A stretch of 64,000 bases of DNA from Acidimicrobiia bacterium (GCA_046759765.1 JBHICV010000001.1:125-64124); one strand, 5' to 3'. Positions 2,851-56,229 are shown, counted from the first letter of the stretch. The notes: a model not told the origin generated them from the letters alone. A program made the numbers and translations.

Positions 2851-4307
2851 TCGACAGATATGTAGTAGGCGTACACAGGCTGCTCCCCGATCGCGGTTTC
2901 CGTAGCGGTTTGTGGGCGATTCACCTCGAGCCAGCCGAGCGCCTGCTCGGTGGCGTCGTTTTCTGCCTCAAGGCCGAGAATCATCGTCACTAGCTCTGCT
3001 TGGGGAGGAACGATACGTTCCAGCAGTGATAAGAGGGCTTCCGCCGGCGTCCCTCCGGCCGCCAGCACCTCCTCCGCAGACCGTCCGATCCAATCGCCTT
3101 CTGCCACCTCACGGACGGTCCCGTCGGTGATCCTCGCTGCCGCTTCCGTCATGCGTCTGAGTGTCTCGGCTGCCTCGAGTTCCGGCTGGTAGGCGACCAT
3201 GGCGGCAATCCCCTCCGTCATAGATCGCGTCGGAACGAGATGGACTCGCTTGGGAGTCAGGCCATCGACGAGAGCAGCAGCCGGGAGAACGTCCGGGTGA
3301 TTGGGAAGGAGAACAACTTCTGAAGCCGGCGCAACTTCGACTCCGGCCAGCAGCTCGCTCGTGGAAGGGTTGAGCGCAGCCCCTCCCTTTACCACCGCTT
3401 GGGCGCCGAGCTGCCGGAAGGTCTCCACCAGGCCCCGCCCTTCGACCACGGCCACCACCCCGATGTCAGCCGCCGCGGAGCCGGGAATCGGTTGGAAGGA
3501 GAGATCCCGTAGGTCATTGACTTCAATGTCGTGAGCACGGCCGACGTCCAGTGCGGCTTCGATCGCGGGCCCAACACTGCTGGTGTGGAGGTGGCATTTG
3601 TATGCCCCGGGAACGCCGACTGTCACGACCGAGTCCCCGAGCGAACTCCATTTGTCGCGCAACTCTGAGATTCCCGTCTCGTTCGCGTCTAAGAGAAGTA
3701 TTACCTCGAAGAACGGCTCATCTGCCGCCGCGATGGTCCCGGCCGGCACTGCTCTGAGCAGGTCATCCGGGAGCGCCGGGGACTCGCCTCCAGCTTCCTC
3801 AGCGAAAGCCGCTAATAGGAGCAAGACTCCCGCCCCGCCGGCATCCACCACTCCCGCCTCGCGCAGGACTGGGAGCAGCTCGGGCGTCCGACGAAGCGCC
3901 AGCTCGCCTTGCTCATAGGCGGCGTCGAGCACGGCTGATTCAGCGCCGGCATGAGCGGCCCGCTGGGCTGCTCGAGCTGCCTCCCTGATCACCGTCAGCA
4001 TCGTGCCCTCTTGAGGGCGGAGAACCGAGGAGTAAGCCTCGTCGGCGCCGTCTGCCAGCGCGCTCGCCATTGCCTGGGCGTTCAGGCTCTCCTCGGCTCG
4101 GAGCCGGTTCGTGATCCCGCGCAGGATCTGACTGAGAATCACGCCGCTGTTGCCTCGAGCCCCCATCAGCGAGCCGTGCGCGACCGCGTCGCAAACATCT
4201 GCCAATTCCGAGATGCCCTCGACCTCCGAAGCAATAGCTGACGCAGTGAGAGCAAGGTTGGTGCCCGTGTCGCCGTCGGGCACGGGGTAGACGTTGAGGC
4301 GGTTCAA
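2847..4307 (-). CDS. DAK2 domain-containing protein (YloV/DegV-like fusion)
   Basis: 486-aa ORF starting [18 protein letters not shown] (DAK2/dihydroxyacetone kinase L-subunit-like motif). Conserved neighbour of recG and divergent from rpmB in Gram-positive bacteria. Overlaps the recG start by 4 nt. Confidence 0.75.
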
Positions 4308-4453
4308 CGCCGTCCGATAGTGGTCGACGTGACTGCGGAATAGCCGGATGACTGCTACCAGCGTCTCCCCTGTGACGGCTGCCCTCCCCTGCGGGGCCGA
4401 TGAGTATATGTAGGGTCCCTGCTAGCCTTGCGGCCGCCTCGAGGTTTCCCCCG

Positions 4454-17106: not shown

Positions 17107-20082
17107 GTGTCGGACAACGCGATCGGGCCGATGGACTGGACTCGGGCCGTTGCCGACACCGACGGTCAGCAGCTAGTTCTGGCCGGGCCGGGAGCAGGCA
17201 AAACCGAGTTCCTCGTCCGCCGCGTCGCCTTTTTGATCGAGGCCGACCTGGCCGAGCCAAGCGAGGTTCTCGTGCTGGCTTTTTCACGCCGGGCAGCCGC
17301 CGAATTGCGATCCCGGGTAGAGGACAAGCTCGGTCGGTCGACGCTCCAGATTCCGGCTTCGACTTTTCATTCGTTCGCCTATCGGCTGCTGGAGTTCGTC
17401 GGACCCCACAAGGTTGGTTGGTCGCGCCTGCCCAACATCCTCACCGGCCCGGAGCAGATCACGTTCGTCGGCTCATTGCTCGAGGGCGAGAGTCCCGAGG
17501 AATGGCCTCCGGCCTACCGCGGCCTGCTCGGCACCCGGACGCTGGCCGAGGAGGTCACCGAGTTCATCCTCCGGGCCAACGAGAGCCTCATCGACGAGTC
17601 ATCCTTACGGGAGCTCGCGGCCAACCGAGCCGACTGGAGGGTGCTTCCGGAGTTCTCGGTCCGCTACAGCAGGGCGTTGGAAGAGGAGCATCGAATTGAC
17701 TACGGAACGCTCCAGACGACCGCCGCTCGGCTGCTAGAGCAGCGCGACATACGGCGGGGCATCGCCGATGACTACCGCTATGTCCTCGTCGACGAGTACC
17801 AGGACACGACCCGGGCCCAGGCGCGCCTCCTTGAACTGGTCAGCACCGAGGGAAATCTCACTGTGGCCGCCGATCCCAACCAGTCGATCTATGGCTTCCG
17901 GGGGTCCCATCCGGAAAACGTCGACCGGTTCGCCGAGAAATACCCGGACACCAAGCGAATCTTCCTCGAACAATCGTTCCGAGTTCCCGAAACTATCCTC
18001 GCCGCCGCCGACAGGATCAGGTCGGCCTCGCCCGCGTTGGCAACGAACCTCGAAGTCCGGGCCGCTGCGCACTCGGGATCCGTGGAGGTTCGTGTCTTCG
18101 ATCAACACTCTCACGAAGCCGAATGGATCGCGTCCGAGGTGCACCGACTGCATCTTTTCGAGGAAATCCCGTTCAGCCGCATCGCGGTCCTCGTGCGCAC
18201 CAAACGCCGATTGCTCACCGAGCTGTCGAGAGCCTTGGCCCGCAGGGAAGTCCCCCATGACGAGCCGCAGTCGCGCCTTGCCGATACCGCCGCCGTCCGG
18301 GCCCTTCTGGATTGTTTGGAAGTATGCGACCTCGAAGCCAAGGCTGATCGTGCCTCCCACCCAGAGGCAGCGATTCTTCGCCAGTCGGCCGACGCGGCCA
18401 TGGCTCGCATCTTGCTCGGCCCGCTCTTCGAGACGCCGTTGGGGCTTCACCGGGATCTACTTCGGCAGCGGAGGAGTACCGGCGCCTCTTGGGCGGACGT
18501 TGTGGGGAAGTTGCTCCCCGATGGGCAGGGGCTCTCTGATCTTCTGTCCGACGACCGCTGGATAACTGCACCAGCGACCGAAGGCTTCTGGACTTGGTGG
18601 ACGAGGCTTCCGCAACTCGTCCCATTCGTCGAACGTGGCGACACCGCTGAGGATCGCGCGGCGTGGAGCTCACTGGCACAGGTTCTCGACCGCATCACGG
18701 AGCGCCAACCGGCGACCACGCTCCTCGACTATGCCCGGCTCGTCTCGGAGGAGGACTTCGAGGCAACACCGTTGCTCAGCTACCGAAAGGTCGACGAGGA
18801 CCGCGTCACTTTGGCCACGCTCCATCAGGCCAAGGGACTGCAGTTCGACGTCGTCTTTGTCGCCGACGCTGTCGAAGGCGTGTTCCCGGACCTACGTCGG
18901 GAGCGCTCGATACTGCAGTCTCACCTGCTGACAGAACAGACGCATACGGGAACCGAAGCGACGAAGGCGCGGCTGGCCGAGGAAATGCGGTTGGCCTATG
19001 TAGGCATGACGCGGGCCAGAAGAAGGGTGATCTGGACCGCGACAATGGCCGGCATCGAGGAGGGTTCGGCAAGACCCAGCCGATTCCTGCCGCTGGTGGC
19101 CGGGGTGGAAACCATTGCCGAGCTGTCCGGTCCTCAGTCCGCCGAGATCCCCCCCGTTACTCCCCGCGCGGCCGAAGCCGCCATGCGGCGCGCTCTGCGC
19201 GACCCTGCTGAGCCTTCTGCTAAGCGGCTCGCCGCGACTGCCGTCCTGGCCTCGTCGGTGGGGCTGCGCCCGCCGTTGGAGTTCGCGGGCGTCAGGCCTC
19301 CTGGACCCGACCGGGGTCTCACCGACGTCGATGTTCGCTTGTCACCGAGCCAGGCTGATCTGTACGAGCGATGCCCGCGCCGTTACGCGCTCTCCCGGCG
19401 GCTTCGCGTGGGTGAGGAGGAGAATGTATACGCTCGTTTCGGGTCTCTGATTCACGAGGTACTCGAGGCCGTCGAGCGGACCGCCATGGCACGCGGCGAC
19501 CAGCACGGATCGCTGGAGGAGGCGGTGGCCGAGCTGGATCGGAGGCTGCCCGACTACGAGTTCGGCTCGCCGGGTCCGACCCGAGCATGGCGCCGTCGAG
19601 GCATCGATTGTCTCGAGAGTCTGTACACGCAATGGCCCGACGGGCGCGCGAGGCCGATCTCCCTCGAACGGGAGCTCCGGCTCGAGCTGGAAGGTACCCG
19701 CTGGCTGGGCTTCGCCGACCGCATCGAGGAGCTCGAAGGCGGCGCCCGCCGGGTGGTTGACTACAAGACCAGCAAGCGCGTTCCGCCGGTCTCAGAGCTC
19801 GCACTCCAGCTCGGCTTCTACCTCCTTGCTTCGGCAGCTGATCAGGACCTCGGTCCCGACGTCACCGAAGCCCAGGCGTGGTACCCGCTCGGCGGCAAGA
19901 AAGTGACGGTGCGAGAGCTCCCGACCTCGGAGCTACCGGACATTCGAGCGAGGCTTGTTGCTATTGCCGACGGTATTAGGAGGGAGAACTGGCAGCCCCG
20001 TCCGCACGAGGGCTGCGAGCGCTGCCCAGTTCGGATCCTCTGCCCGGAGTGGCCTGAAGGACAGGAGGCATTCGTCAGATGA
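17107..20082 (+). CDS. UvrD-type helicase with C-terminal RecB-like nuclease (AdnA-like subunit)
   Basis: 991 aa with N-terminal Walker A AGPGAGKTEFLV, UvrD motifs (DEYQDT, TLHQAKGLQFDVVFV), the C-terminal PD-(D/E)XK motif VVDYKTSK and the Cys cluster CERCPVRILC. Stop overlaps the next start (ATGA). Confidence 0.7.
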   Translation: MSDNAIGPMDWTRAVADTDGQQLVLAGPGAGKTEFLVRRVAFLIEADLAEPSEVLVLAFSRRAAAELRSRVEDKLGRSTLQIPASTFHSFAYRLLEFVGPHKVGWSRLPNILTGPEQITFVGSLLEGESPEEWPPAYRGLLGTRTLAEEVTEFILRANESLIDESSLRELAANRADWRVLPEFSVRYSRALEEEHRIDYGTLQTTAARLLEQRDIRRGIADDYRYVLVDEYQDTTRAQARLLELVSTEGNLTVAADPNQSIYGFRGSHPENVDRFAEKYPDTKRIFLEQSFRVPETILAAADRIRSASPALATNLEVRAAAHSGSVEVRVFDQHSHEAEWIASEVHRLHLFEEIPFSRIAVLVRTKRRLLTELSRALARREVPHDEPQSRLADTAAVRALLDCLEVCDLEAKADRASHPEAAILRQSADAAMARILLGPLFETPLGLHRDLLRQRRSTGASWADVVGKLLPDGQGLSDLLSDDRWITAPATEGFWTWWTRLPQLVPFVERGDTAEDRAAWSSLAQVLDRITERQPATTLLDYARLVSEEDFEATPLLSYRKVDEDRVTLATLHQAKGLQFDVVFVADAVEGVFPDLRRERSILQSHLLTEQTHTGTEATKARLAEEMRLAYVGMTRARRRVIWTATMAGIEEGSARPSRFLPLVAGVETIAELSGPQSAEIPPVTPRAAEAAMRRALRDPAEPSAKRLAATAVLASSVGLRPPLEFAGVRPPGPDRGLTDVDVRLSPSQADLYERCPRRYALSRRLRVGEEENVYARFGSLIHEVLEAVERTAMARGDQHGSLEEAVAELDRRLPDYEFGSPGPTRAWRRRGIDCLESLYTQWPDGRARPISLERELRLELEGTRWLGFADRIEELEGGARRVVDYKTSKRVPPVSELALQLGFYLLASAADQDLGPDVTEAQAWYPLGGKKVTVRELPTSELPDIRARLVAIADGIRRENWQPRPHEGCERCPVRILCPEWPEGQEAFVR

Positions 20083-23000
20083 GGCCGACTGTGGAGCAGC
20101 AGGCGATTACGAGCTATCCCCTGGGGCCTCTTCGTGTGGAGGCCGGGGCGGGGACCGGCAAGACGACCACACTGGCTTGGCGAGTCGCAGATCTGGTCAA
20201 GCTGCACAACATTCCGCCCCAAGCAATCCTCGGTATCACGTTCACGAACAAGGCCGCCGAGGAGCTCGCCGACCGGATCCACTCGGAGCTCGGGTTGCAG
20301 CTGAGCCAAGAGGTCGAGGTGCATACCTATCACGGCTTCGCCAATCAGCTAGTACAGGAATTCGGTCCGCTACTAGGTATCGAGCGCAGCTTTTCCGTTA
20401 TCACCCCCACCTTCGCCCGTCAGCTATTGCTGGATCAGGTGGCGGTGGGTTCATTCGACGAGCTGGATCTCACCTTTCCGCGCGGGATCGTGGCCCGTCT
20501 CATCAAGCTCTCCTCGGAACTGAGTGATCACCTCCGGACCGCGGATGACCTGCTTTCGGCCTCAGCCCTCCGCTCGGAGATCCCCTGGCCCGCTCGGGCC
20601 GAGCTCGCGACCCTTCTCAAGAGGTACGAAGCCAGCAAACGCCGACTGGACCTCCTCGATTACGGCGATCTGATAAGAGTCGCCCACCACTTGGTTGCCG
20701 ACCATCCGGAAGTCGCTGATCGGGTGCGCAGCCGGTATCAAGCGGTGTTGTGTGACGAGTACCAGGACACGAATCCCGCCCAGCGCGAACTCTTGCGAGC
20801 ACTATTCGGAGCGGGGTTTCCTCTGACTGTGGTTGGCGATCCCAACCAAACGATCTACGAGTGGCGAGGAGCGACACAAGAGAACTTCGCGGCTTTCCCC
20901 GTGCACTTCCCGAGCGCCGACGGCACACCCAGTGACACCAAACCGCTGTCACTCAACCGCCGATCAGACAGGCGGATCATCAAGGTTGCCAACGCGGTCG
21001 CCGGGAAAATCGGCTCCACCTCCCGGCTACGCCCTCGTCCCGGCGCGGGGCCCGGCCACGTCGAGGCTCGTTGGTACTCGACCGCACTAGACGAGGCGCA
21101 CGGCATCGCGGAGGAGATCGGGCGGCTCCACTCCGAAGCGGCGACCCAATGGCGGGACGTGGCCGTTCTGTTTCGGAAGAACAAAGACATATCACTCGTG
21201 AGGGATGCGCTCTCGGACCATGACATTCCGGTCGAGGTTGCCAACCTCGGCGGATTGCTGGGCATCCCTGAGGTGGTCGAGCTTCACGCCTGGCTTCGAG
21301 TGATCCGAGATCCCCGCGATGGAGTGGCGTTGACTCGGATCCTCACGGGTACCCGCTTTCGGCTGGGCCTTGGCGACCTGCGACCACTGGCCTTCTGGGC
21401 GCGCCGCCGCGACGGCCGAGGTGATGAGCCTGAGCTCGATGCTCCCACCCACAGCCTGATAGAGGCGATCGAGAATGTGTCTGAGCTGGACATCAGAGAC
21501 GAAGCGAGAGCCCCGCTGGAGGACTTCCTTCGCATCTACCGGGGCCTTCTGGCTGATGCGCAGGCGGTCAGCCTGGTCGAGCTTTGTAGGAGGATCCTCG
21601 ACGCCATCTCAGCCTGGGACGAGATAGAAGCGATGCCGGACGCCGGGCGTCTGTCCGCCCGACTCAACCTCTATCGTTTTCTCGACCTGGCCGAGGACTG
21701 GAGCCCGCTCGAGGGACGGCCGAGCCTTTCGGCCTTCCTCGACCATCTGTAGCTGATGCAGGAGGAAGAGGCCGAGGATCTAGACGCGGCTCGCCTGTCG
21801 AATGAAGACGCGGTGGCTTTGCTGACTGTTCACCGAGCCAAGGGACTCGAATGGGACGTGGTCTTCGTACCGGCCCTGTATCGAGGCAACTTCCCTTCCT
21901 ACGCGCGCCTCCACGAGGACCCGTTCAGGTTCCCGCAGATCCTCCCGTACGAGCTGCGGCTCGACCGCGACAGCTTGCCGCCAATCACGGACACCATGTC
22001 CGAGCAGATGCGAAAGGAGGTTCTGGGAAAGGGCCAAACCACGCAGGAGTGGCGAACGGCATATGTGGCCGTCACGAGGGCCCGTTCCCGGCTATACGCC
22101 TCCGGTGCTTGGTGGGTCGGATCGCCCGCCCCACAAAAGAATCCGAGCCGCCAGAGCGATCTCTTCGAGCTCATCGCAGGCCACGCCGACAAGGTCGTTG
22201 TTGCCGAGAAGCCGGGCCCCAGGCCGAAGCGAATTCGGCGCGAGTCAAACGGCGGTGCCCCCGACCCGGTCTTCCCGGACGGCTGGCAGAGCGGCTTGCG
22301 AGCCACCCTTGCCGATCCGTCATGGCCGGCCGATAGGGCCGCGAAGCTGGGCGTAAGCGACCTCTTCGAGCAAGAGCGCCAGCAGCTGCTCGACGTGGTG
22401 GCTCAAGCTACCCAACCCGCAGAGGCTTCTCCGACCTCGGAGAAAGTTGAGACCTCGGCAACCGGACTGGTCACATACGCCACGTGCCCTCGTCGCTTCT
22501 ACTGGTCGGAGATCGACCGGCTCCCCCGCCGGTCAACCAAGGCGGCGAGACGAGGAACGCTGATCCACCGCCGCATCGAGCTCCACAACAGCGGGATGGT
22601 GCCCTTCGAGGAGTTGGAAGCCGACCTTTACGACCGCACCACAGACGAAGGGGTGAGTGGAGGCCGAGGTGATCCGTTCGAAGCCTTCATGGGGTCACGC
22701 TTTGCGGAAGTGCTACCCCGTTGGGTCGAGATACCGTTCGAGCTCCAGCTAGGACCCTCCACTCGGGTGCGGGGCCGGATCGACGCCATCTACACGAACG
22801 GAACCACCGAGGTTGTCGACTTCAAGACCGGCAAGGGACCGAGCAGCCGCGCGGCCCGAGTGCAGCTGGAGGCTTACGGGCTGGCTGTGGCCGAGACGGG
22901 CTTGGCCGAGCCGCCGTTCCAGTTGACGTTCGCCTTCCTCGGGCAGGGAGTCTCGGAGGAGTCCGAGCAAGCGGACACCGCGTGGCTCGGCAACGCCCGC

Positions 23001-23135
23001 AGTCATCTGACCAAGTTGACCGAGGCCATCCAAGCCCGCAACTACGACGCCACCCCCTCCTACAGCTGCCACTCCTGCGACTTCCTACGTTTTTGCGAGC
23101 CGGGCCGGGACTGGGTAGACCTGCACCCGAGCTGA
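20079..23135 (+). pseudogene. UvrD-type helicase-nuclease (AdnB-like subunit) interrupted by in-frame TAG at 21750-21752
   Basis: ORFs 20079..21752 and 21756..23135 are in the same frame. They carry GAGTGKTT Walker A, DEYQDTN, then after the TAG ...TVHRAKGLEWDVVFVP (motif V/VI), the C-terminal VVDFKTGK nuclease motif and CHSCDFLRFC cysteines. Together they would give about 1017 aa. Confidence 0.65.
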
Positions 23136-42427: not shown

Positions 42428-42871
42428 TTACACCATTCGGGCCGGCAGTGGCATGGCCGGCGATGCAGAGCTTCGGGCCACTCCCAGTAGCGGACCGACG
42501 ATTACGAGGAAAACCACGAAGTGAGTCACCAAGAGCCAGCCCGTCGCCACATCCGTTGTCGCCATAGTCAGCGGCGCGAGTAGCGAGGCGAGGAAGACGA
42601 GCAGGCTGGCCAAGCCGAAGAACATGGTCGGCCTGGGCACGAAGCGCAGGAAGAGATGCAAGGTAGCGGAGGCGAGGATTCCCGCTCCGAACGCAAGCCC
42701 GAAAACCGCGCGGGCAGTGATCGAGTCGACCTCCTCCGAGATGGGGCTCTCCACCAGGAGCTCGATGCTCAAGACCTGCGTGGCGAACGAGAAGACGATT
42801 ACGCCTGCCACTCCCGCCAGGACCGAAGTTACGAAGCCCCCGAACCACAAGCGGCCGGCGTTTACCTGCAT
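42428..42871 (-). CDS. Hypothetical membrane protein (4 TM)
   Basis: 147-aa hydrophobic ORF with no known motif. Confidence 0.4.
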   Translation of the reverse strand: MQVNAGRLWFGGFVTSVLAGVAGVIVFSFATQVLSIELLVESPISEEVDSITARAVFGLAFGAGILASATLHLFLRFVPRPTMFFGLASLLVFLASLLAPLTMATTDVATGWLLVTHFVVFLVIVGPLLGVARSSASPAMPLPARMV

Positions 42872-42920
42872 CTCCGCCTCCCGAGGTCGCGGGAAGGGTA
42901 CCGCTTATGCTGGCTCTCCA

Positions 42921-44897
42921 ATGTCCGAAGTCGTCTGGAACGCCGACCCCGCCACGGTGGCCCGATCAGCAACGTCGCGCTTCATGGCCGCCCACGGCAT
43001 CGCCCAGTTTTCCGACCTCGTGCGCCGGTCCCAGGAGGAGCCAGAGTGGTTCTGGTCAGCCGTCGTCGACTTTCTCGGAATACCTTTCCGGGCTCCCTTC
43101 GACCAGGTGCTCGATGTGTCACGAGGAAAACCCTGGGCGACGTGGTTTACAGGGGGCGAGATCAACCTCTCCGACGTGTGCGTTGATCGATGGGCAGCCA
43201 CCGACGGGGACCGAGTCGCGGTTATCAGTGAGCGAGAGGAAGCAGGCGATCCGCGAACGGTCACGTTCTCGGCCCTCCGCGACGAGGTAGCCCGTGCCGC
43301 GGGCGCGCTCTGGGAACTCGGTGTCGGCCGCGGAGACACCGTGGCCGTGTTCCTTCCGATGTCGCACTACGCCGTCGTCTCGGTGCTTGCCATCGCTCGT
43401 GTGGGAGCGATCGTCGTGCCGATCTTCTCGGGCTACTCAGCAGAGGCCGTGGCGACGCGGTTGATCGACTCCGCACCCACCGCGGTGATCACGGCCGACG
43501 GCTTTCGGCGGCGTGGCCGGCTTGTCGAGATGAAGGAGACACTCGATGATGCCGTCCGCTTCGCCAGAAAGGACGGACGCCGAATATCCCAGGTGCTGGT
43601 GGTGGAGTACGCAGGGCGAGCCGACACCCCGTTCGACCCCCTCCGCGACGTCTGGTGGCACGACCTCGTCCCGGTGGCGGCGCCGGCAGATCCGGTAGCG
43701 ACCAGCTCCGAGGAGCCGGTATTGCTGGCATACACGTCCGGAACCACCGGCCGTCCCAAAGGAGCGATCCATGTTCACGGCGGCCTAGCCGTCAAGTTTG
43801 CCGCGGAGGGCGCCTTTCAGCTCGACCTCCAGCCAGACGACGTTCACATGTGGGTATCCGACATGGGCTGGATCATGGGACCGTGGATGGTGGTCGCGGG
43901 TCTGGCCAACGGCGCCACGATCGCAACTTATGACGGTGCCCCCGACTTCCCCGACCCGGGCCGGCTTTGGGAGATGACCGAGAAGCTCGGGATAACCGCA
44001 CTAGGGATCTCTCCCACGCTCATTCGGAGCCTCCAGGGATTCGGTGATGAGCACGTCGAGAACCATGATCTGGGGACGCTGCGGGTATTCGGGTCTACCG
44101 GGGAGCCTTGGAATCCAAGCCCTTGGTGGTGGTTATTCGAAGTAGTCGGCCAAAAGCGAGTCCCGATCGTGAATATCTCGGGCGGAACCGAGGTCGCGGC
44201 CTGCTTCTTGTCCGTCAACCTGCTGCAAGGCTTGAAACCATGCTCTCTGGGCGGACCGGCCCTCGGTATGTCCGTCGACGTGTTCGACGACAACGGTCAA
44301 CCGGTACGAGGAGCCGTCGGGGAGCTGGTCTGTCTTGAGCCGTGGCCCTCGATGACCCGAGGGTTCTGGGGTGATCCCGATAGATACGTGGAGGCGTACT
44401 GGAGCCGCTGGCCGGACGTGTGGGTTCACGGCGACTGGGCGTCGATAGACGAAGACGGATTCTGGTATCTCCACGGCCGCTCAGACGACACTCTGAACAT
44501 CGCCGGCAAGCGCGTGGGGCCCGCTGAGATCGAGTCGGCGGCTGTCGGACACCCAGACGTAGTCATGGCCGCCGCCATCGGCGTCCCGGACGAGATCAAG
44601 GGCGAGAGGATCGTGGTCTATGCCGTACCGGTCTCCAACGCGGCAACGGAGGGCCTGTCAGAAGAGATCGCCGCTCTGGTCGTCGAGGGTCTCGGGAAGC
44701 CGTTCCGACCGAGCGAGGTGGTTTTCGTTACCGACCTTCCTCGTACTCGGTCAGCCAAAATCATGCGGCGTCTGATCAAGGCGAAGGCACTTGGAACTGA
44801 CCTGGGGGACCTCGCCGGTCTGGAGAATCCCGACGCGGTCCGTGAGATCCCGTTGCTCGCCGACTCCGCCGGGCCCTCTCCTCAACCCCCTGACTGA
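42921..44897 (+). CDS. Acyl-CoA synthetase, acetate/acetoacetate--CoA ligase-like (AMP-forming)
   Basis: Start at ATG 42921. AYTSGTTGRPKG AMP-binding motif, ACS-like N-terminal region (PEWFW...W..GG.N) and C-terminal ...SGKIMRR-type motif (SAKIMRRL). Confidence 0.8.
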   Translation: MSEVVWNADPATVARSATSRFMAAHGIAQFSDLVRRSQEEPEWFWSAVVDFLGIPFRAPFDQVLDVSRGKPWATWFTGGEINLSDVCVDRWAATDGDRVAVISEREEAGDPRTVTFSALRDEVARAAGALWELGVGRGDTVAVFLPMSHYAVVSVLAIARVGAIVVPIFSGYSAEAVATRLIDSAPTAVITADGFRRRGRLVEMKETLDDAVRFARKDGRRISQVLVVEYAGRADTPFDPLRDVWWHDLVPVAAPADPVATSSEEPVLLAYTSGTTGRPKGAIHVHGGLAVKFAAEGAFQLDLQPDDVHMWVSDMGWIMGPWMVVAGLANGATIATYDGAPDFPDPGRLWEMTEKLGITALGISPTLIRSLQGFGDEHVENHDLGTLRVFGSTGEPWNPSPWWWLFEVVGQKRVPIVNISGGTEVAACFLSVNLLQGLKPCSLGGPALGMSVDVFDDNGQPVRGAVGELVCLEPWPSMTRGFWGDPDRYVEAYWSRWPDVWVHGDWASIDEDGFWYLHGRSDDTLNIAGKRVGPAEIESAAVGHPDVVMAAAIGVPDEIKGERIVVYAVPVSNAATEGLSEEIAALVVEGLGKPFRPSEVVFVTDLPRTRSAKIMRRLIKAKALGTDLGDLAGLENPDAVREIPLLADSAGPSPQPPD

Positions 44898-46309: not shown

Positions 46310-47308
46310 ATGAGGATCGCGGTTATAGGCGCCGGGTCTTGGGGAACAACCATCGCTTCGGTGACGTCCGGCCGGACGAAGACGACGCTATGGTCGCGGC
46401 GGCCCGAAATCGCGGAGTCAATTCGGACCAATAGGCGCAACCCCGCTTATCTCAGCTCCTACTCACTTCCCGATGAGCTGGAGGCAACCTCCGATCTCGC
46501 GGAAGCCATTTCCGGTGTCGACCTGATCGTCATGGCCGTGCCGTCCCATGGCTACCGCGACACCATCAGCAAGGCGTCGGGGCTCATCGAAGGAGAGGTA
46601 GCGATCCTCAGCCTGACCAAGGGCATCGAGCAGCACACACTGCTGCGGATGACGCAGGTCACCGCCGAAGCCGTCCCCTCCCATCCTTCTTCGCTGATCG
46701 GAGTCCTGACCGGACCAAACCTCGCTCCGGAGGTGATGGCCGGACAGCCCACGGCCAGCGTCGTGGCGTTCGAGGAGGTCGAGGTCGCTCGCCGGTGCCA
46801 GGACGTCTTGATGTCCAGCTCCTTCCGTATCTACACGAATACGGACGTGGTGGGCTGCGAGACCGCGGGGGCAGTCAAAAACGTCTTGGCGATCGCGGCG
46901 GGAATGGCAAAGGGCCTCGGCTTCGGAGACAACACACTCGCGGCTCTCGTCACCAGAGCACTCGCCGAGCTCACGCGACTGGGCGTCGCGCTGGGAGGCG
47001 AGCCGGTGACATTCGCCGGGCTGGCTGGCATGGGCGATCTCATTGCCACATGCATGAGCCCAACGAGCCGCAATTACCGCGTCGGATATGGCCTTGGCCA
47101 GGGCCGAACCTTGCAGGAGGTAACCGACGAGATGCAAATGGTGGCCGAAGGGATCAAGACGACGAGAGCCGTGCTAGATCTCGCCGCTCGGGCCGGCGTG
47201 GAGGTTCCCATCTCAGAACAGGTTGGGCGAGTTCTCTACGAGGAAGCTGCACCCTCGGAGGCAGTTCTGGCGCTGATGAGCCGAGCTCCGAAGGACGAGC
47301 GGGACTGA
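46310..47308 (+). CDS. gpsA: NAD(P)H-dependent glycerol-3-phosphate dehydrogenase
   Basis: MRIAVIGAGSWGTT Rossmann N-terminus after a ggagga RBS; GpsA motifs (KGIE, NVLAIAAG). Confidence 0.85.
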   Translation: MRIAVIGAGSWGTTIASVTSGRTKTTLWSRRPEIAESIRTNRRNPAYLSSYSLPDELEATSDLAEAISGVDLIVMAVPSHGYRDTISKASGLIEGEVAILSLTKGIEQHTLLRMTQVTAEAVPSHPSSLIGVLTGPNLAPEVMAGQPTASVVAFEEVEVARRCQDVLMSSSFRIYTNTDVVGCETAGAVKNVLAIAAGMAKGLGFGDNTLAALVTRALAELTRLGVALGGEPVTFAGLAGMGDLIATCMSPTSRNYRVGYGLGQGRTLQEVTDEMQMVAEGIKTTRAVLDLAARAGVEVPISEQVGRVLYEEAAPSEAVLALMSRAPKDERD

Positions 47309-47325: not shown

Positions 47326-48234
47326 TCAGGCGGCCTCCCAGGCCGCCCGACGAAGTGCTCGGTAGAGGAGGTCGCGGTCACCAAGCCGACGCCGCAGATG
47401 GCGTTCCAATCCACCGACCGGATAAAGGTTCTGCGGGGCCCGCGGTTCCTTGTGACGGCCGGACGCGAACCGTGGGAGCGTCGCCGACACGAGGTCGGCT
47501 GTCGCGGTTGCTTCAGATGGCTCGAGCTCTGCGGGCGCTTCGCATCGAACGATTCCCGACATCGGGCTGGCATCCGATCCCGGGAGGCGCAGGTACCACG
47601 AGTATCGACTCCATGATGTGGTTGTCAGAAACACTGGCGTCCGCTGACCAGGAAGCAGATTCCCCAGGACCGGCTGAAGCGCAGGAGGTAGATAGTTGAC
47701 ACGATGGGTCTTGATGTAGCCGACAGCTCCCCGCGGCCCGGCGCGGCCCCTCAAGGGGCCATCCACCACCACCAGTTGGCCCTCCGAGGCGGGCAGGTCG
47801 CGCTCCAGATCACCCATCCTCTGTTGAACTCCGAGCCACAGCTCTTCGGGGGTCGATCCGGCGGTGGCGTGTAACTCGTATGTGGCCCGTGACGTCACCA
47901 GCGCCCGAGCGTCTCCAGCCGGTGTGAACAGGCCCCTCCGTACCTCAGCTGCCACGATGTCGGCGGTGCCGTTGCACAAGACCGCGCCCGCTGCGTATGA
48001 GGCGCAGACACCCATCACCGCCGTTTCGCCCTCTGTGATCCAGAGGTTGGCGTCCACTCTTCGGACTCCGTCTATGAAGAGAACGTGCTCAGCAGGTTCC
48101 CCGGTTGGCGACTGCGGGGTCCATTTTTCTCCCGGTATCTCGATGTCGACATCGACAGGTCCGGAAGGCTCTTCGGACCACATGTCGGTCGGAGTCCCGT
48201 AGTCCGGATCCCACGGCTCAACAGAGAACCTCAT
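47326..48234 (-). CDS. Hypothetical protein, candidate NurA-like nuclease (last gene of the herA-sbcD-sbcC operon)
   Basis: 302 aa; ATGA overlap with the sbcC stop. Contains HVLFIDGVRRVD and LVVVDGPLRG, reminiscent of NurA motifs I and III (xIDGS, hhhDGsL), plus GYIKTH. Confidence 0.4.
   Translation of the reverse strand: MRFSVEPWDPDYGTPTDMWSEEPSGPVDVDIEIPGEKWTPQSPTGEPAEHVLFIDGVRRVDANLWITEGETAVMGVCASYAAGAVLCNGTADIVAAEVRRGLFTPAGDARALVTSRATYELHATAGSTPEELWLGVQQRMGDLERDLPASEGQLVVVDGPLRGRAGPRGAVGYIKTHRVNYLPPALQPVLGNLLPGQRTPVFLTTTSWSRYSWYLRLPGSDASPMSGIVRCEAPAELEPSEATATADLVSATLPRFASGRHKEPRAPQNLYPVGGLERHLRRRLGDRDLLYRALRRAAWEAA
47329..47347. terminator. GC hairpin GGCGGCCT-ccc-AGGCCGCC between convergent gpsA and the NurA-like gene
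   Basis: 8-bp perfect stem immediately after both convergent stops; there is no U-tract, so intrinsic termination is uncertain. Confidence 0.3.
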
Positions 48235-50615
48235 GAGTCGATTCGCCGCACCGTTGCGGTCTTGGCACCTTTGGTGACCTCGAACCTGACCGGTACCTGC
48301 TCGGCGAGCTCGGTTACGTGGGTGACAATTCCGACCGTTCGGCCCCGGGCTCCGAGCTCGTGAATGACACCTCCAACCGTGTCTAGGCTCTCGCGATCGA
48401 GTGTCCCGAAACCCTCATCGAGAAAGATCGTCTCCATGGGCGAGCCTCCTCTGGTTGACAAACGGCTCAGCTGCTCGGAGAGAGAGAGCGCCAGCGACAG
48501 GGACACCAGAAATGTCTCACCTCCTGAGAGGGTACGAACCGAGCGCCTCTCATCGGCGTTGCGATGATCGACGACCTCGAAGCCTCTCCCGGCGAGCCAG
48601 AGCGAGTACGACCCCTGCGAGAGTTCCGTCAAGAGCTCGTTGGCACCGGCAACCAAAGCCCTCAGGGCCTCGTCCAAGAGCCAAGCTTCGAAACGATCGG
48701 CCCGCAGATGGAGAGCCAGCATCTCCGAGGTGGCCCTACGGCGGGTGCTCTTCTCGATCCCGATGCGGATCTTCTCCAACTCAGAGGCCGCTTCGGAGAT
48801 CCGATCGAGCTGATGTCTCGCCTCGGCTAACTCGGCGAACGAAGCCTTCTCCCGGCTGAGGACATCTGTGGGTTCCAGTCCGTGCTCTCGCATAAACTCG
48901 TCGAGCTTGTCGGCCAGCTCGACGGCCTCGACCTCGTATCTGGCTGCCGCCTCCTCCGCTTCGGTAGCTTCGGCCGTCAGCTCGTCGCCGCGGGCTCGGG
49001 CCCACTCGGCGAGTTGTTGCCAGTCATGAAACGGATCGTCTCGCGCCGGTCGCGGCGGATCGAGTTTCGCAACCCGGTCTCTCGCCTGCTCGAAGTCCTT
49101 GCGAAGTCGATCGATATTGCCTTCCAACTGCTCCTGCTTTGTTCGGTGCTTGGCGAAGGCCTCGCGGGCTTCGATCTCGCTTTTGCGTGAGTCTGACAGC
49201 TCGGCATCTGCTTTCTCGGCCGCCTCGACCTGTGCCGCAAGCTCGTCACGTGGCGGCACCCCCGCAAGCCGGCGCTCGAGCTCATCGATTCGCTCCTGCA
49301 GGTCGTGGGCTCTCCCCTCGAGCCGAGCTCTCTTCTCCTCCGCCGCGCTCTTCCTCGCTTCGCTACTGTCGTGGGCATCCTCCACTAGCCGCAGGCCCTT
49401 CTGAGCGGCCGTCAGTGAGGCTGCCCGCACCTCCGTCGGGATCGCAGTCACCACCTGTCTGCAGACCGGACAACGGTCACCCATACGAAGATCGGCCGCG
49501 AGACCGTGGGCGGCATGAGCCGACTTGGCCTCCTCGAGCGCTTCTCGTGCTGCGAGCAGCTTGCTGTTCGACTCGGCGGCGTCGGCTCGCACGGAAATGA
49601 GCTCGGAGGAAGCGATTTCCAAGCTGGCGGATACCTCCGAATGCGCCTTTCGGATTTGAGTCAGCTCCTCCATCCCCCTCCAAAGATCCTTCAGCTCCGC
49701 GCGGTCGCCGAGACTGTCTCGGCGACTCTCGGCCGCCGTCAGACGCTCGGTTGCTTTCTTGGCGTCTGCCTGGGATATCACCAGCTGGTGGTTGGCGGTA
49801 TCGCTCTGATTTCTCAGTGTCTGGGCCTCATCCGGGACTTCGAGACCCTCGAGCTTGCTTGCCTGTTCCGCCGCGGTCCGAGCTGCCTTCCGCGTGGCTT
49901 CGGCGTCGGCGATCTTTCTCTCGAGCTCTGGTTCGGATTCAGCCAGGCGCTCGTGCAGCCGCTCCAGGGCGGCGACACGCTTCTCCGCGTCAGCCCTCGC
50001 TTGCGAAGTCGCGAAGTCGAGATCCGCTGCACGTGCCTCGAGCCCGCGCACCCGCTCGGAAAGCGCCGCGGCCTCGTGTGCCGCTAGCTCCCGGATCTCG
50101 GAGAAGATTCCAAGGTCGAGAAGGCTGCGCAGGAGAGCCTGGCGTTGAGCCGGCCGATCATGGAGAAATCGGGCGAACTCGCCCTGCGGTAGGACGACTG
50201 ACTTGATGAAGTGATCGAACCCGAGCCCCAGCAAGGCTTCGACGGCGTTGGTGACTTCATCGGCCGTGCCGGCTACGACCTCGTCTCCGTGCTCGAGCCG
50301 TGCCTCTTCGGTGCTGGCTCCCCCGTCTTTTCTTCGGCGGACCACTCGGACTGCGGTCCACTCATCGGGCCCCACGTTGAAGTCGAATCGGACCCGGGCT
50401 TCGAGCTTCCCGACTGAGATCAGGGGGGCGACGGCCCGCTTGTCGCCGTACCTCGGGACCGACCCATAGAGCGCGAACACGATCGCGTCGATCAGGCTGG
50501 ATTTTCCGGCTCCGGTGGCGCCAGTCAATGCGAAGAGATCGGCGTCTGAGAAATCGACAACTACCGGTTCGCGAAAGGCTATGAAGCCTGAAACCTCGAG
50601 TTGCTTAGGGCGCAC
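48231..50615 (-). CDS. sbcC: SbcC/Rad50-family ATPase with zinc hook
   Basis: Walker A LTGATGAGKSSLIDAI, coiled-coil middle with the CPVC hook (DRCPVCRQ), C-terminal signature LSGGETFLVSLSLALSL and Walker B IFLDEGFGTLD. 794 aa. Confidence 0.8.
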   Translation of the reverse strand: MRPKQLEVSGFIAFREPVVVDFSDADLFALTGATGAGKSSLIDAIVFALYGSVPRYGDKRAVAPLISVGKLEARVRFDFNVGPDEWTAVRVVRRRKDGGASTEEARLEHGDEVVAGTADEVTNAVEALLGLGFDHFIKSVVLPQGEFARFLHDRPAQRQALLRSLLDLGIFSEIRELAAHEAAALSERVRGLEARAADLDFATSQARADAEKRVAALERLHERLAESEPELERKIADAEATRKAARTAAEQASKLEGLEVPDEAQTLRNQSDTANHQLVISQADAKKATERLTAAESRRDSLGDRAELKDLWRGMEELTQIRKAHSEVSASLEIASSELISVRADAAESNSKLLAAREALEEAKSAHAAHGLAADLRMGDRCPVCRQVVTAIPTEVRAASLTAAQKGLRLVEDAHDSSEARKSAAEEKRARLEGRAHDLQERIDELERRLAGVPPRDELAAQVEAAEKADAELSDSRKSEIEAREAFAKHRTKQEQLEGNIDRLRKDFEQARDRVAKLDPPRPARDDPFHDWQQLAEWARARGDELTAEATEAEEAAARYEVEAVELADKLDEFMREHGLEPTDVLSREKASFAELAEARHQLDRISEAASELEKIRIGIEKSTRRRATSEMLALHLRADRFEAWLLDEALRALVAGANELLTELSQGSYSLWLAGRGFEVVDHRNADERRSVRTLSGGETFLVSLSLALSLSEQLSRLSTRGGSPMETIFLDEGFGTLDRESLDTVGGVIHELGARGRTVGIVTHVTELAEQVPVRFEVTKGAKTATVRRIDS

Positions 50616-51747
50616 CCGCCGTCTCCATTAGCTCCCGAAACAGGGCGACAACCTTGTCGTCCTCTACGCCCTCGCTCGTCAAGTACTCCGCCACGAGCTC
50701 ATGGGGAGGGCGCCCCAGACGCGGCGGGCGCTCCACATCGTCAAGTTTCTCGGGACTGACGAGTACTACGTCGATGGCCTCGGGAATCATCTCGCGGATC
50801 TGATCGGCCAGGCCTGCTCGAGCCGGCTCGTGGAGCTCAACGCGGACATATGCGTCCTCGGTGCTCGGGGCGGCAGCCTCGATTTCAGCCAGAGTCCCGG
50901 CGATCTTGAAGAGGCGTCGCCCGCTCGTGATCGGTATCTGGGTGACGTGAGCGGGCAGGCCGGGTTCCGCTTCTACGAGCAAGACGCCTTTGGGATCTTC
51001 CGTTTCGCCGAAGTCGAGCTGCAGCGGCGAGCCGGAATACCAGGTCGGACATGGGGCGGGGACACGCTGAGCCCGGTGCAGGTGTCCCAGCGCCGCATAG
51101 GTCAACGCACCGGGAAACGCCTGGGCAGGGACGACATAATCAAACACCGTGTGAGCCTGTCGCTCGCCACCGCCCAGTTCGCCCCCGGCCACCATCACAT
51201 GACCGACAACGATGTTGACCTCATTCGTCGACAGGTCCTGCGTGAGGTGCACGATGATCTCTCGGACCCGTTCGGCGTACTTGCCGCCGTGAGCCGATCT
51301 CCCCAGGCCCATCAGATCATCTGCTCGAACGACGTAGCGCTGGGAGATGAACGGCAGCAAGGCGAGCCGCGCCGACTCGCCGCTCGCGGCCTTCATTCGT
51401 ATAACTCCGCCTTCCGCCGCGGGGCGGGGATGGGATGCGACCGTTACCCGACCAAGCTCCAGTAGAGGGGCCACGGCCTCGAGCCGGCGGGGATGGTCGT
51501 GATTGCCGGCCACGATGACAACGGGCGCGATTTCGGCCAGGCCGAGCAGCGTCTGGTAGACGATCTGTTCGGACTGCGGAGATGGGGCAGCCAGGTCGAA
51601 CAGATCCCCGCCCACGAGAACCAGGTCGACTTCCTGTGCCTCCGCCACACCAGTGACTTCCAACAGCACAGCTTCATGCTCGGCGGCACGGCTCTTTCCA
51701 CGCATCGTCCTTCCCACGTGCCAGTCCGAGGTGTGGAGGATTCTCAC
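50605..51747 (-). CDS. sbcD: SbcD/Mre11-family nuclease
   Basis: Calcineurin-like phosphoesterase motifs VRILHTSDWHVGR, GDLFD, VAGNHDHP and GHVM (as VGHVMVAG). GTG start overlaps the HerA-like stop (GTGA). Confidence 0.8.
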   Translation of the reverse strand: MRILHTSDWHVGRTMRGKSRAAEHEAVLLEVTGVAEAQEVDLVLVGGDLFDLAAPSPQSEQIVYQTLLGLAEIAPVVIVAGNHDHPRRLEAVAPLLELGRVTVASHPRPAAEGGVIRMKAASGESARLALLPFISQRYVVRADDLMGLGRSAHGGKYAERVREIIVHLTQDLSTNEVNIVVGHVMVAGGELGGGERQAHTVFDYVVPAQAFPGALTYAALGHLHRAQRVPAPCPTWYSGSPLQLDFGETEDPKGVLLVEAEPGLPAHVTQIPITSGRRLFKIAGTLAEIEAAAPSTEDAYVRVELHEPARAGLADQIREMIPEAIDVVLVSPEKLDDVERPPRLGRPPHELVAEYLTSEGVEDDKVVALFRELMETAGAP

Positions 51748-53414
51748 GCCGGGAGTCCGGCGAATGGGTCCTGCTGTGAGGCCGGTCCGGCCTCTGAAGC
51801 TCGTGTTGCCCACGCGGGGAACGGAAACTCGACGACCAGCGGAATTGGTAGCTCGGGCTGGGAGACGAGCATCGTTCCCGGCTTCATGATGGTCGCCCGC
51901 TGGCGATGTGCGGCCGGAAGGAACCCGTACTCCTCGCGGGCTGCTTCGGCCGAGTCCAATCGTCCGACGACTCTGATCGAAGAGTTGGCGATTATCCGGC
52001 GCTCTACTTCGCTGGCAGTTTGTTGCGCTCCGATCAGAACAACTCCCAGCGAGCGGCCGCGCTCCGCCACATCCAGGAGAACCTCCTTGATGGGCGAGAA
52101 GCCCTCACGAGGGGCATATTTGTTCAGCTCGTCGAGGACCAAGACCAGCAACTCGCGGGTGCCGCCCTGACGCTCTTTCTCCTCGAAGGCCCGACGGACC
52201 GTCGCTCCTACCACGAACCTCTTCGCTCTGTCGTTGAGCGTGTGAAGGTCTACGACGGTCACCTGATCGTCCAGGCGGACTCGATGTTGGCCGGGATCGG
52301 GGACGTCAGCGCGCACAAGACGCTCTACGTGCCGTACCGCTCCCTGCAAACGGCGCACGAAGGCATTGATCGTGCCCATGCCCATAGCCGGACCGGCCCA
52401 CAGGTGCCGGTCGGAGTCGTCCTGCACGCGGGCGGTGATCAGATCGGCCAGCTCGCGGAAAGTCCTGAGCTCAACACCGTCGAGCTTCACGCCACCGTCG
52501 TCGGTCGTCACCGCGTTACGCAGCTGAGCCATCACGTTGTATATGACCATCGTGTACTGGGCTCGGTCGTCTTCGGCATCGGCAAAGAGGAAAGGCAGCA
52601 GGTCGTCCTGACAGAAATCGGCCAGAGTCCAAAAGAAGGACGTGACGCCTTCACTGCGTCCCGCTACGCCGGCAGCCGCGCTCGGCGCGCCTGCCCTAGG
52701 CGGCGCGAAGATCGCCAAGCTGCGGAAAGGTTCACCGGCCAAGCCGAGGGCCTGGTAAAGACGCCGGTCCTCCGCGCTCATGGCCAAGTTTCCTCGGTCG
52801 AGGTAGAGAAGGTCCTCTCCCTTCACATTGAAGATCAGCGCCTTTGTGTTGACGGCTCGGTCGCCTAGGACTCCGGAGCTGAACAGGCTGTGAAGCAAGA
52901 ACGTGGCGTAGCTCGTCTTGGTCGCCACCCCGGAGACGCCGCTGATGTTGGCGTGTGCTCCGCGGGTGCCGTCGAGAAACTCCAAGTTGGCGAACAGAGG
53001 CTCACCGGACCGGGACAACCCGATCGGCAGCCGCTCGCTCATCCGGTCGAAGAAAAGCGCCTCCTCCCGCTCTTCGGCATGAGCAAGGCGAACACCCAAG
53101 CCCGGCTGAGGTGGGACGAAGATCTCGGGCTCGAAGCGAGTCGCCGTTACCTGCGCCGCCTCCATCACTTCCGCCGGCAGCACTCCTTCGGAGATGAGAA
53201 AGACGTCGGAGTCGAAGCGTGCGCCCTCATGGCGCGCGCGTACCTGGGAGACGACGCCGTAAATCCTTACCTGCTCGCCACCCGGGAGCTTGCGTTCGAG
53301 AGCGACGACATCGTCGAGCTGCAAATAGCGATCGCCCGCCACCCCGACCCAGAACTCCAGAGGCGTGGCGTCCTCTGTGCCGATTACCCGGCCGACAAGC
53401 TCGTTCGACTCCAC
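51744..53414 (-). CDS. HerA-like (FtsK/HerA superfamily) ATPase
   Basis: 556 aa with an N-terminal barrel-like region, a deviant Walker A GVSGVATKTS and a HerA-type Walker B LVLVLDELNKYAP (compare hhhhDEAHxxxP). Confidence 0.6.
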   Translation of the reverse strand: MESNELVGRVIGTEDATPLEFWVGVAGDRYLQLDDVVALERKLPGGEQVRIYGVVSQVRARHEGARFDSDVFLISEGVLPAEVMEAAQVTATRFEPEIFVPPQPGLGVRLAHAEEREEALFFDRMSERLPIGLSRSGEPLFANLEFLDGTRGAHANISGVSGVATKTSYATFLLHSLFSSGVLGDRAVNTKALIFNVKGEDLLYLDRGNLAMSAEDRRLYQALGLAGEPFRSLAIFAPPRAGAPSAAAGVAGRSEGVTSFFWTLADFCQDDLLPFLFADAEDDRAQYTMVIYNVMAQLRNAVTTDDGGVKLDGVELRTFRELADLITARVQDDSDRHLWAGPAMGMGTINAFVRRLQGAVRHVERLVRADVPDPGQHRVRLDDQVTVVDLHTLNDRAKRFVVGATVRRAFEEKERQGGTRELLVLVLDELNKYAPREGFSPIKEVLLDVAERGRSLGVVLIGAQQTASEVERRIIANSSIRVVGRLDSAEAAREEYGFLPAAHRQRATIMKPGTMLVSQPELPIPLVVEFPFPAWATRASEAGPASQQDPFAGLPA

Positions 53415-55443: not shown

Positions 55444-56229
55444 ATGAAAAGGCTAGGTCTGGCAATCGTCCTCGCGGTCAGCGCATGCACTGCGGCGCCC
55501 GAAGGCGTAACCGTCACGGTCCTCGACGTGATCGACGGGGACACCATCCGCGTTCTTTCGAACGGGAGCCTCGAGGATGTGCGGCTGGTTGGGATCAACA
55601 GCCCTGAGTGGGTTGAGTGCCAGGGTCCGGAGGCAGCGGCAGCTCTCGAGGAAATGCTCGAACGGGATAGGGCGCGTCTGGTGGTGGACACCTCAGACCG
55701 CGACCAATACGGAAGGCTGCTTCGGCTGGTCTTCTCGGAAGGGGATTTCGTCAACGAGTCATTGGTGCGCGCGGGCCTGGCTATCGCCTTCTCGGTTCCG
55801 CCCGACGTCTCGGCCGCCAACCTCCTATCGCGAGCTGAGGAGTCGGCGGAGCGAAGCTGGGCCGGGATCTGGGACCCAAGTGCCTGCGGTCCTCCTCCCC
55901 CGCCGGGCATCACGATCGAAGGGATACACAGTGGAGCAGGTTGGACAGGCGAGCCCATCGATGGGGAATCGGCGGTCATCCGCAACATTGGTGCCTCGGC
56001 GATTGAACTCACGGACTGGACGCTGCGTGACGCCTCGTCTCACCACCGCTACCGATTCCCCGCCTTGGTAGTAGAGGGTGGAGGCCGAGTGGTGATCGAG
56101 ACGGCCTGCGGATCCGATCGGCCGGACCGCCTGCACTGGTGCTCGGATAGCCCGGTGTGGAACGACGCTCGGGACCACGCCTTTCTTCTGGACATCCACG
56201 GCAACATCGCCAGCCATCTGCGTTATTGA
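55444..56229 (+). CDS. Secreted thermonuclease (SNase-like) lipoprotein with C-terminal lamin-tail-like domain
   Basis: Lipobox LAVSACTA; SNase motifs DGDTIRV...VRLVGINSPE...YGRLL; C-terminal ...NIGASAIELTDWTLRD... resembles an LTD. Confidence 0.6.
   Translation: MKRLGLAIVLAVSACTAAPEGVTVTVLDVIDGDTIRVLSNGSLEDVRLVGINSPEWVECQGPEAAAALEEMLERDRARLVVDTSDRDQYGRLLRLVFSEGDFVNESLVRAGLAIAFSVPPDVSAANLLSRAEESAERSWAGIWDPSACGPPPPPGITIEGIHSGAGWTGEPIDGESAVIRNIGASAIELTDWTLRDASSHHRYRFPALVVEGGGRVVIETACGSDRPDRLHWCSDSPVWNDARDHAFLLDIHGNIASHLRY

Follow-up and report, generated by a model that had tools for sequence, protein, structure and literature searches.

The window analysed here, a 64,000-nucleotide stretch of DNA from an Acidimicrobiia bacterium (GCA_046759765.1, JBHICV010000001.1:125-64124), harbors on its minus strand a co-directional block of four genes in the order herA-sbcD-sbcC-nurA, and the last of these, nurA, is the subject of this report. 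A sequence-only reading had placed a 302-amino-acid open reading frame (ORF) at 47326-48234, without naming a strand, as the terminal gene of an operon and a candidate for a NurA-like nuclease; the ORF does lie there, on the minus strand, starts with ATG and is the last gene of the block. The identification of its product as a bacterial-type NurA is supported by sequence, predicted fold, active-site residues and gene context. The genes of the block are as follows.

47326-48234, minus strand: nurA, 302-amino-acid bacterial-type NurA nuclease; the span includes the stop codon
48231-50615, minus strand: sbcC/rad50, 794-amino-acid SMC (structural maintenance of chromosomes)-like ATPase
50605-51747, minus strand: sbcD/mre11, probable 380-amino-acid product with a GTG start at 51747; the longest ORF reaches 51813
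51744-53414, minus strand: herA, 556-amino-acid bacterial-type HerA ATPase/translocase, first gene of the operon

A phmmer search of the PDB with the nurA product returned the NurA chain of Deinococcus radiodurans (drNurA) in entry 7F6D with E=9.4e-21 over query residues 1-295, that is, over the full length, and a weaker match to the Thermotoga protein TM1739/NurA (TmNurA) in entry 1ZUP. A family profile built from 61 diverse representatives, which share 33-57% identity with the query, found the same two structures with E=3.2e-57 and E=2.4e-22, respectively. The ORF is a real gene and not an accident of the sequence: of 8000 candidates scored, 5477 database proteins match its product at E<=1e-3, and the family profile finds 1845 clusters (50% identity) at the same threshold. 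The assigned start codon agrees with the alignment of the N-terminus, in which MRFSVEPW pairs residue-for-residue with MRIRLDPW of drNurA. An identical protein from an Acidimicrobiia metagenome-assembled genome (MAG) is deposited at NCBI as a "hypothetical protein", and NCBI names one relative with ~59% identity "DNA double-strand break repair nuclease NurA". The protein had been described as divergent and as perhaps a minimal bacterial version of NurA. It is instead typical of bacterial-type NurA proteins and not especially divergent within its own lineage, and because full-length family members are typically 300-330 amino acids long, its 302 residues are normal for that lineage, ~300 amino acids being usual for bacterial NurA. 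The bacterial-type family is known to be without the archaeal M domain (PMC3300031).

The active site of NurA from P. furiosus (PfNurA) comprises D51, E105, D126 and H411, and that of TmNurA comprises D49, E140 and D157, with E280 replacing the histidine (PMC3300031); the drNurA mutant D53A is nuclease-inactive (PMC9960219). Residues were mapped onto these proteins by counting through the printed alignments, with a 20-residue tag in 7F6D and 12 residues in 1ZUP as the offsets, and the predicted active-site residues of the query are encoded at the following positions.

48070-48072, minus strand: codon of D55, metal-binding Asp in F-I-D-G of strand beta1, equivalent to drNurA D53, TmNurA D49 and PfNurA D51
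47803-47805, minus strand: codon of E144, catalytic Glu where helix alpha1 ends, equivalent to TmNurA E140 and PfNurA E105
47761-47763, minus strand: codon of D158, second metal-binding Asp in V-V-V-D-G-P, equivalent to TmNurA D157 and PfNurA D126
47404-47406, minus strand: codon of E277, fourth active-site residue in G-L-E-R, equivalent to TmNurA E280 and at the position of PfNurA H411

The partner of E144 in the chain numbering of 1ZUP is E152, placed by the profile alignment, and in drNurA E144 aligns with the Glu in ...LQDEQKL, D158 with the Asp in ...LVLQDGPVR, and E277 with E321 by our own count. These four are the sole invariant acidic positions in the 61-sequence alignment. When the NurA ORFs of 80 species-level genomes were considered together with the query, D55, E144 and D158 were present in all 81 sequences, and the position of E277 was occupied by Glu in 79, by Asp in one and by a gap in one. 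An Asp-Glu-Asp-(Glu/His) tetrad is therefore present at the aligned positions as judged from the alignments, and would take the D-E-D-E form of TmNurA (D55/E144/D158/E277), not the D/E/D/H form that the sequence-only reading had expected. The motifs quoted in that reading were all located, HVLFIDGVRRVD at residues 50-61, LVVVDGPLRG at 154-163 and GYIKTH at 172-177, and the two aspartates it singled out, in IDGV and VVVDGPL, coincide with D55 and D158, the residues that align with the metal-binding positions of NurA. GYIKTH does follow VVVDGPL and its K175 is invariant, but its histidine is not, and is not the catalytic one. As a candidate for the fourth catalytic residue, H177 of GYIKTH was rejected on the grounds that it varies in the family and sits one position away from the drNurA histidine, while E277 aligns with TmNurA E280. 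Likewise E130/E131 (P-E-E-L-W), considered for the catalytic Glu, lie where the single-sequence alignment with drNurA is ambiguous, and were set aside in favor of E144, which is invariant and falls on TmNurA E140.

An AlphaFold2 monomer model computed from a 35-sequence alignment (mean predicted local distance difference test score, pLDDT, 83.1; predicted template modelling score, pTM, 0.81) has the RNase H-like/PIWI catalytic fold. A Foldseek search of the PDB with this model placed the NurA chain of 7F6D at the top (E=1.9e-19, TM 0.70) and 1ZUP next, and the order of structural neighbors is that published for NurA (PMC3300031). Structure prediction had been named at the outset as a check on the NurA assignment, with a non-RNase-H fold as an outcome that would count against it, and the predicted fold is RNase H-like.

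Bacterial NurA is marked by a dimerising N-terminal beta strand, a pin (residues 10-15 in drNurA) near the functional W8, an extra turn between beta3 and alpha1, and the lack of an M domain, and the W8A mutation of drNurA lowers end resection (PMC9960219). In the model of the query, residues 2-5 form a beta strand, no M-domain insert separates the strand of D158 from the core strand that follows, and a putative pin-like element adjoins a tryptophan that is kept in all 81 sequences.

48211-48213, minus strand: codon of W8, beside the N-terminal pin-like element; aligns with drNurA W8

The basic residues by which drNurA contacts HerA, K299/H305/K306/R336/R339, correspond to R255/H261/K262/R292/R295 and are largely kept in the query, including those of motifs 3 and 4. 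The query is close to drNurA in its N-terminal strand, its predicted pin beside W8, its lack of an M domain and its D55 at the place of the nuclease-dead D53, and differs from it in being ~47 amino acids shorter, the loops that link beta3 to alpha1 and follow beta4 being reduced. The likeness to TmNurA is more distant (~20% identity), and TmNurA has LPIPRLPENIL, without the H-K pair of the conserved HKxPRAPQNL of the query clade. Archaeal NurA proteins (S. solfataricus 2YGK, P. furiosus 3TAI and T. kodakarensis 9X1L) share ~12% identity with the query. They dimerise through an N-terminal helix, contain an M domain of ~150 amino acids, have His as the fourth active-site residue (PfNurA H411) and lack a pin (PMC3300031, PMC9960219), and none of the archaeal-specific features is found in the query.

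The three genes upstream encode HerA, SbcD and SbcC. The HerA protein matches D. radiodurans HerA (drHerA) of 7F6D over its full length (phmmer E=1.7e-145), has a Walker A motif (GVSGVATKT) at residues 159-170 and a Walker B motif (LDE) with D-E at residues 428-429, and carries equivalents of the drHerA translocation arginines R495 and R552, the functional residues of drHerA being those described in PMC9960219. Curated models return only a 12-bit HAS-barrel match in Pfam and 13-bit HerA matches in NCBIfam, and because these scores stand against an E value of 1.7e-145, the models largely miss the bacterial-type HerA of this clade. SbcD has the Pfam domains Metallophos and SbcD_C and all phosphoesterase motifs, and scores 176 bits with the NCBIfam model sbcd (cutoff 77.65) versus at most 38 bits with archaeal Mre11 models. 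SbcC has a Walker A motif at residues 32-40, a CPVC zinc hook at 382-385, an LSGGE signature at 696-700 and a Walker B motif; it contains the Pfam domains AAA_23 and SbcC_Walker_B, matches E. coli SbcC in the PDB with E=2.1e-35, and scores 247 bits with the NCBIfam model sbcc versus at most 97 bits with archaeal Rad50 models.

Adjacent genes of the block overlap. The herA stop and the sbcD start share GTGA (51747-51744), sbcD and sbcC overlap by 11 nucleotides, and the sbcC TGA and the nurA ATG share ATGA (48234-48231). The first of these overlaps places the sbcD start at 51747 and not at 51813, in agreement with relatives, whose alignments to the long ORF begin at its residue 23. NurA shares its locus with a HerA ATPase, herA heading the same operon. 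Downstream, the convergent gpsA gene, encoding glycerol-3-phosphate dehydrogenase, ends at 47308, 17 nucleotides from nurA. The genes neighboring the operon are metabolic, with gpsA and a glucose/sorbosone dehydrogenase gene among those flanking it, and the GC content of the operon is 0.640, compared with 0.638 for the 64-kb window.

A scan of one genome per species revealed a relative in at least 594 genomes, and linkage was counted in the best 80 loci of these, mostly labelled as Acidimicrobiia or Actinomycetota MAGs. The sbcC gene lies directly upstream of nurA in 75 of the 79 genomes with any upstream DNA, sbcD is present in all 69 genomes with at least 3.6 kb of upstream DNA, and herA is found upstream on the same strand in 63 of the 68 genomes with at least 5.4 kb; gpsA follows nurA in many relatives. 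The conserved linkage, the GC content equal to that of the window and the metabolic neighborhood speak for a native module with a housekeeping role and against a mobile island of defence genes. The operon is not always contiguous, some relatives having an insert of 0.5-3.7 kb between herA and sbcD. One distant relative (L081) has the permuted order nurA-herA-sbcD-sbcC, another, on the P0225 contig (JGI 3300047160), has sbcC-nurA within ~7 kb of genes for a LigD-type ATP-dependent DNA ligase and a LigD Prim-Pol, and in one distant relative nurA has neither herA nor sbcCD as a neighbor.

Several details of these loci are recorded here as observations in their own right. An insert of 1-3.7 kb between herA and sbcD occurs in about a dozen relatives, L001, L003, L008-L010, L034, L042, L050, L060, L061, L068 and L080; in L001 it contains, at 3270-4427, a gene for a 385-amino-acid protein that bears a lipoprotein-type signal and resembles an alpha/beta hydrolase. 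Loci L005, L011, L032, L033 and L037 have sbcD-sbcC-nurA and no herA in the ~4.4 kb upstream, where herA may be farther away or missing. On the P0225 contig, end-processing genes of the homologous-recombination type and of the non-homologous end joining (NHEJ) type are thus found close together. Eleven loci (L015-L017, L019, L020, L022, L025, L027, L028, L053 and L057) are labelled as Acidobacteriota or Gammaproteobacteria MAGs and yet encode NurA proteins with 57-59% identity in the same herA-sbcD-sbcC-nurA-...-gpsA synteny as in Acidimicrobiia, and their taxonomy labels are probably wrong or the bins contaminated.

Among described bacteria, Deinococcus and Thermus are reported in publications to have a nurA-herA pair, whereas here sbcD and sbcC stand between herA and nurA, and the host, in contrast to that of drNurA, is a mesophilic-type, high-GC member of the Acidimicrobiia known from a MAG. 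In Oceanithermus profundus the order nurA-hepA-sbcD-sbcC links a bacterial pair to SbcD and SbcC, and was read as an archaeal-like architecture for double-strand break (DSB) repair (PMC5448004). The Oceanithermus order nurA-herA-sbcD-sbcC is that of the distant relative L081; the locus of the window differs from it in placing nurA last and in belonging to the Acidimicrobiia (Actinomycetota) and not to the Deinococcota.

Taken together, we consider it highly probable (roughly 0.9) that the product of the gene is a catalytically competent NurA of the bacterial type, a metal-dependent DNA nuclease of the RNase H/PIWI fold that would act with HerA and SbcCD in DNA-end resection. By homology, a NurA dimer would cap the hexameric ring of the HerA ATPase, which would use ATP to drive duplex DNA into the dimer. 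There the N-terminal pin beside the conserved tryptophan would split the strands, and each strand would pass an active site formed by D55, E144, D158 and E277. Cutting of the 5' strand during ATP-driven translocation would leave a 3' tail for RecA, and SbcD and SbcC, the bacterial Mre11-Rad50, would first recognise and clean the DNA end, as is assumed for archaeal Mre11-Rad50. In the D. radiodurans complex, HerA pushes the duplex into the NurA dimer, and 3' tails are generated in vitro (PMC9960219).

A number of observations weigh against this interpretation. The Pfam NurA model (PF09376) scores the query at 20.1 bits, below its gathering threshold of 21 (E=4.9e-4), and covers residues 142-270 only, and an NCBIfam scan of the protein returned no family at E<=1. 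Among the 61 family representatives, 32 individually match Pfam NurA at E<=0.01 (best 4.1e-12), and the just sub-threshold score of the query accounts for its family-less look and for the "hypothetical" annotation. The pin region, about residues 11-25, has a pLDDT below 50 and is the one such stretch of an otherwise confident model, so that of the bacterial-type features the pin itself is modelled with low confidence. Of the acidic drHerA contacts D78/E80/D81, one of three is kept in the query HerA (D70, with F72 and L73 replacing the others); according to the authors of the D. radiodurans structure, the HerA-NurA interface aligns poorly outside Deinococcus (PMC9960219). Deletion of nurA or herA in D. 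radiodurans or Thermus results in modest or even improved damage resistance (PMC9960219), and the same window encodes an AdnAB-like helicase-nuclease, so that the HerA-NurA module need not be the main route of resection. The predicted enzymology is well supported by residue conservation, and the physiological role is less certain because the bacterial deletion phenotypes are weak or paradoxical.

The AdnAB/AddAB-like pair lies at 17107-23135 on the plus strand. Its first subunit (17107-20082, 991 amino acids) has UvrD helicase and PD-(D/E)XK nuclease domains and matches the mycobacterial AdnA and AdnB chains in the PDB with E values of about 1e-35 and 1e-27. A single in-frame TAG at 21750-21752 (...SAFLDHL*LMQEEE...) interrupts the second subunit; it divides the subunit into a 557-amino-acid helicase ORF and a 459-amino-acid UvrD_C/PD-(D/E)XK ORF and could reflect a pseudogene, an assembly error or read-through. 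A recG gene on the minus strand (703-2850) encodes the RecG wedge, DEAD, Helicase_C and RecG_dom3_C domains. The 64-kb window thus combines a number of functions in recombination and repair.

The alternative that survives best, although we regard it as an outside chance, accepts the same NurA-HerA enzymology and assigns it another role, either processing of replication forks or hairpins together with SbcCD or processing of DNA during transfer or uptake. The activity for which bacterial SbcCD is chiefly known is cleavage of hairpins and of ends blocked by protein, and resection may be covered otherwise by the AdnAB-like enzyme and RecG encoded in the window. The weak or paradoxical deletion phenotypes point the same way (PMC9960219), and Thermus HerA-family proteins have been linked to DNA transfer (PMC5365140). 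Set against this, the linkage to SbcCD through overlapping codons mirrors the archaeal DSB-repair operon, one relative has the NHEJ genes for LigD ligase and Prim-Pol within ~7 kb, drNurA-HerA makes 3' tails in vitro (PMC9960219), and no conjugation or competence genes are present at the locus.

A still less probable proposal is that HerA-NurA and SbcCD form a restriction module against phage or other foreign DNA, comparable to other defence systems built on HerA and an effector or to TdpAB, which is the restriction component, HerA-like and NurA-like, of the phosphorothioate-based TdpABC system. This reading was rejected after a PADLOC scan, in which NurA had no match and its partners showed only generic SMC and HerA similarities, the match of SbcC to LmuB being of the generic SMC-family kind. 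TdpB (8WET/8WFD) shares ~12% identity with the query, without a detectable sequence match, and resembles it only distantly in structure. Neither a tdpC-like gene for modification nor any other defence gene adjoins the operon; the neighbors are metabolic, the context is that of housekeeping and not of defence, the GC content equals the genome background, and the syntenic position near gpsA is kept across many species, as for a vertically inherited core function. That the protein is an inactive NurA relic or another RNase H-fold protein (EndoV-like or PIWI-like), as the partial, sub-threshold Pfam match and the NCBI label "hypothetical" could suggest, is effectively refuted by the match to NurA in the PDB, the invariant tetrad and the family-profile matches.

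Elsewhere in the window, a gene at 55444-56229 on the plus strand, ~2 kb upstream of the herA operon and on the opposite strand, encodes a 261-amino-acid protein with a lipoprotein-like N-terminus and staphylococcal-nuclease (SNase) and lamin-tail domains, probably a secreted or surface nuclease. At 42624-44897 on the plus strand, an acetyl-CoA-synthetase-like AMP-binding enzyme is encoded; its longest ORF has 757 amino acids, with the ACAS_N domain from residue 131 preceded by a low-complexity N-terminal extension of ~100-130 amino acids, and the real start is probably an internal Met. An Rfam scan of the entire 64-kb window returned no RNA family, and a promoter and terminator scan of the operon gave only weak consensus matches at about chance level, which is uninformative in a high-GC actinobacterium.

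The query is a newly identified representative of an already known kind of enzyme and introduces no new mechanism or enzyme class. NurA and HerA homologs have been reported in Actinobacteria (PMC8708640), and bacterial NurA-HerA has been characterised structurally and biochemically in D. radiodurans (PMC9960219). Our literature search, confined to one searchable library, found no paper naming NurA or HerA together with Acidimicrobiia. The immediate consequence is a correction of annotation, in that a NurA nuclease has been deposited as a "hypothetical" protein and its HerA partner falls below the curated cutoffs of Pfam and NCBIfam. The combination of HerA-NurA with Mre11-Rad50 in a four-gene arrangement is familiar chiefly from thermophilic archaea, with a previous note of it in one Thermales genus; here it is conserved, and apparently core, in a large mesophilic bacterial lineage. 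The genome studied also encodes an AdnAB-like resection enzyme, and the locus is of use for comparative work on DNA end resection.

The gene order matches the archaeal herA-mre11-rad50-nurA, while the closest characterised relative of each protein is bacterial. It is tempting, though on balance doubtful, to suppose that the Acidimicrobiia unit arose independently of the archaeal operon and that its four products act as one physical machine. If so, the arrangement would constitute convergent evidence for an obligatory coupling of Mre11-Rad50 with HerA-NurA, and would offer a mesophilic bacterial system, alongside AdnAB, in which this long-assumed coupling could be tested.
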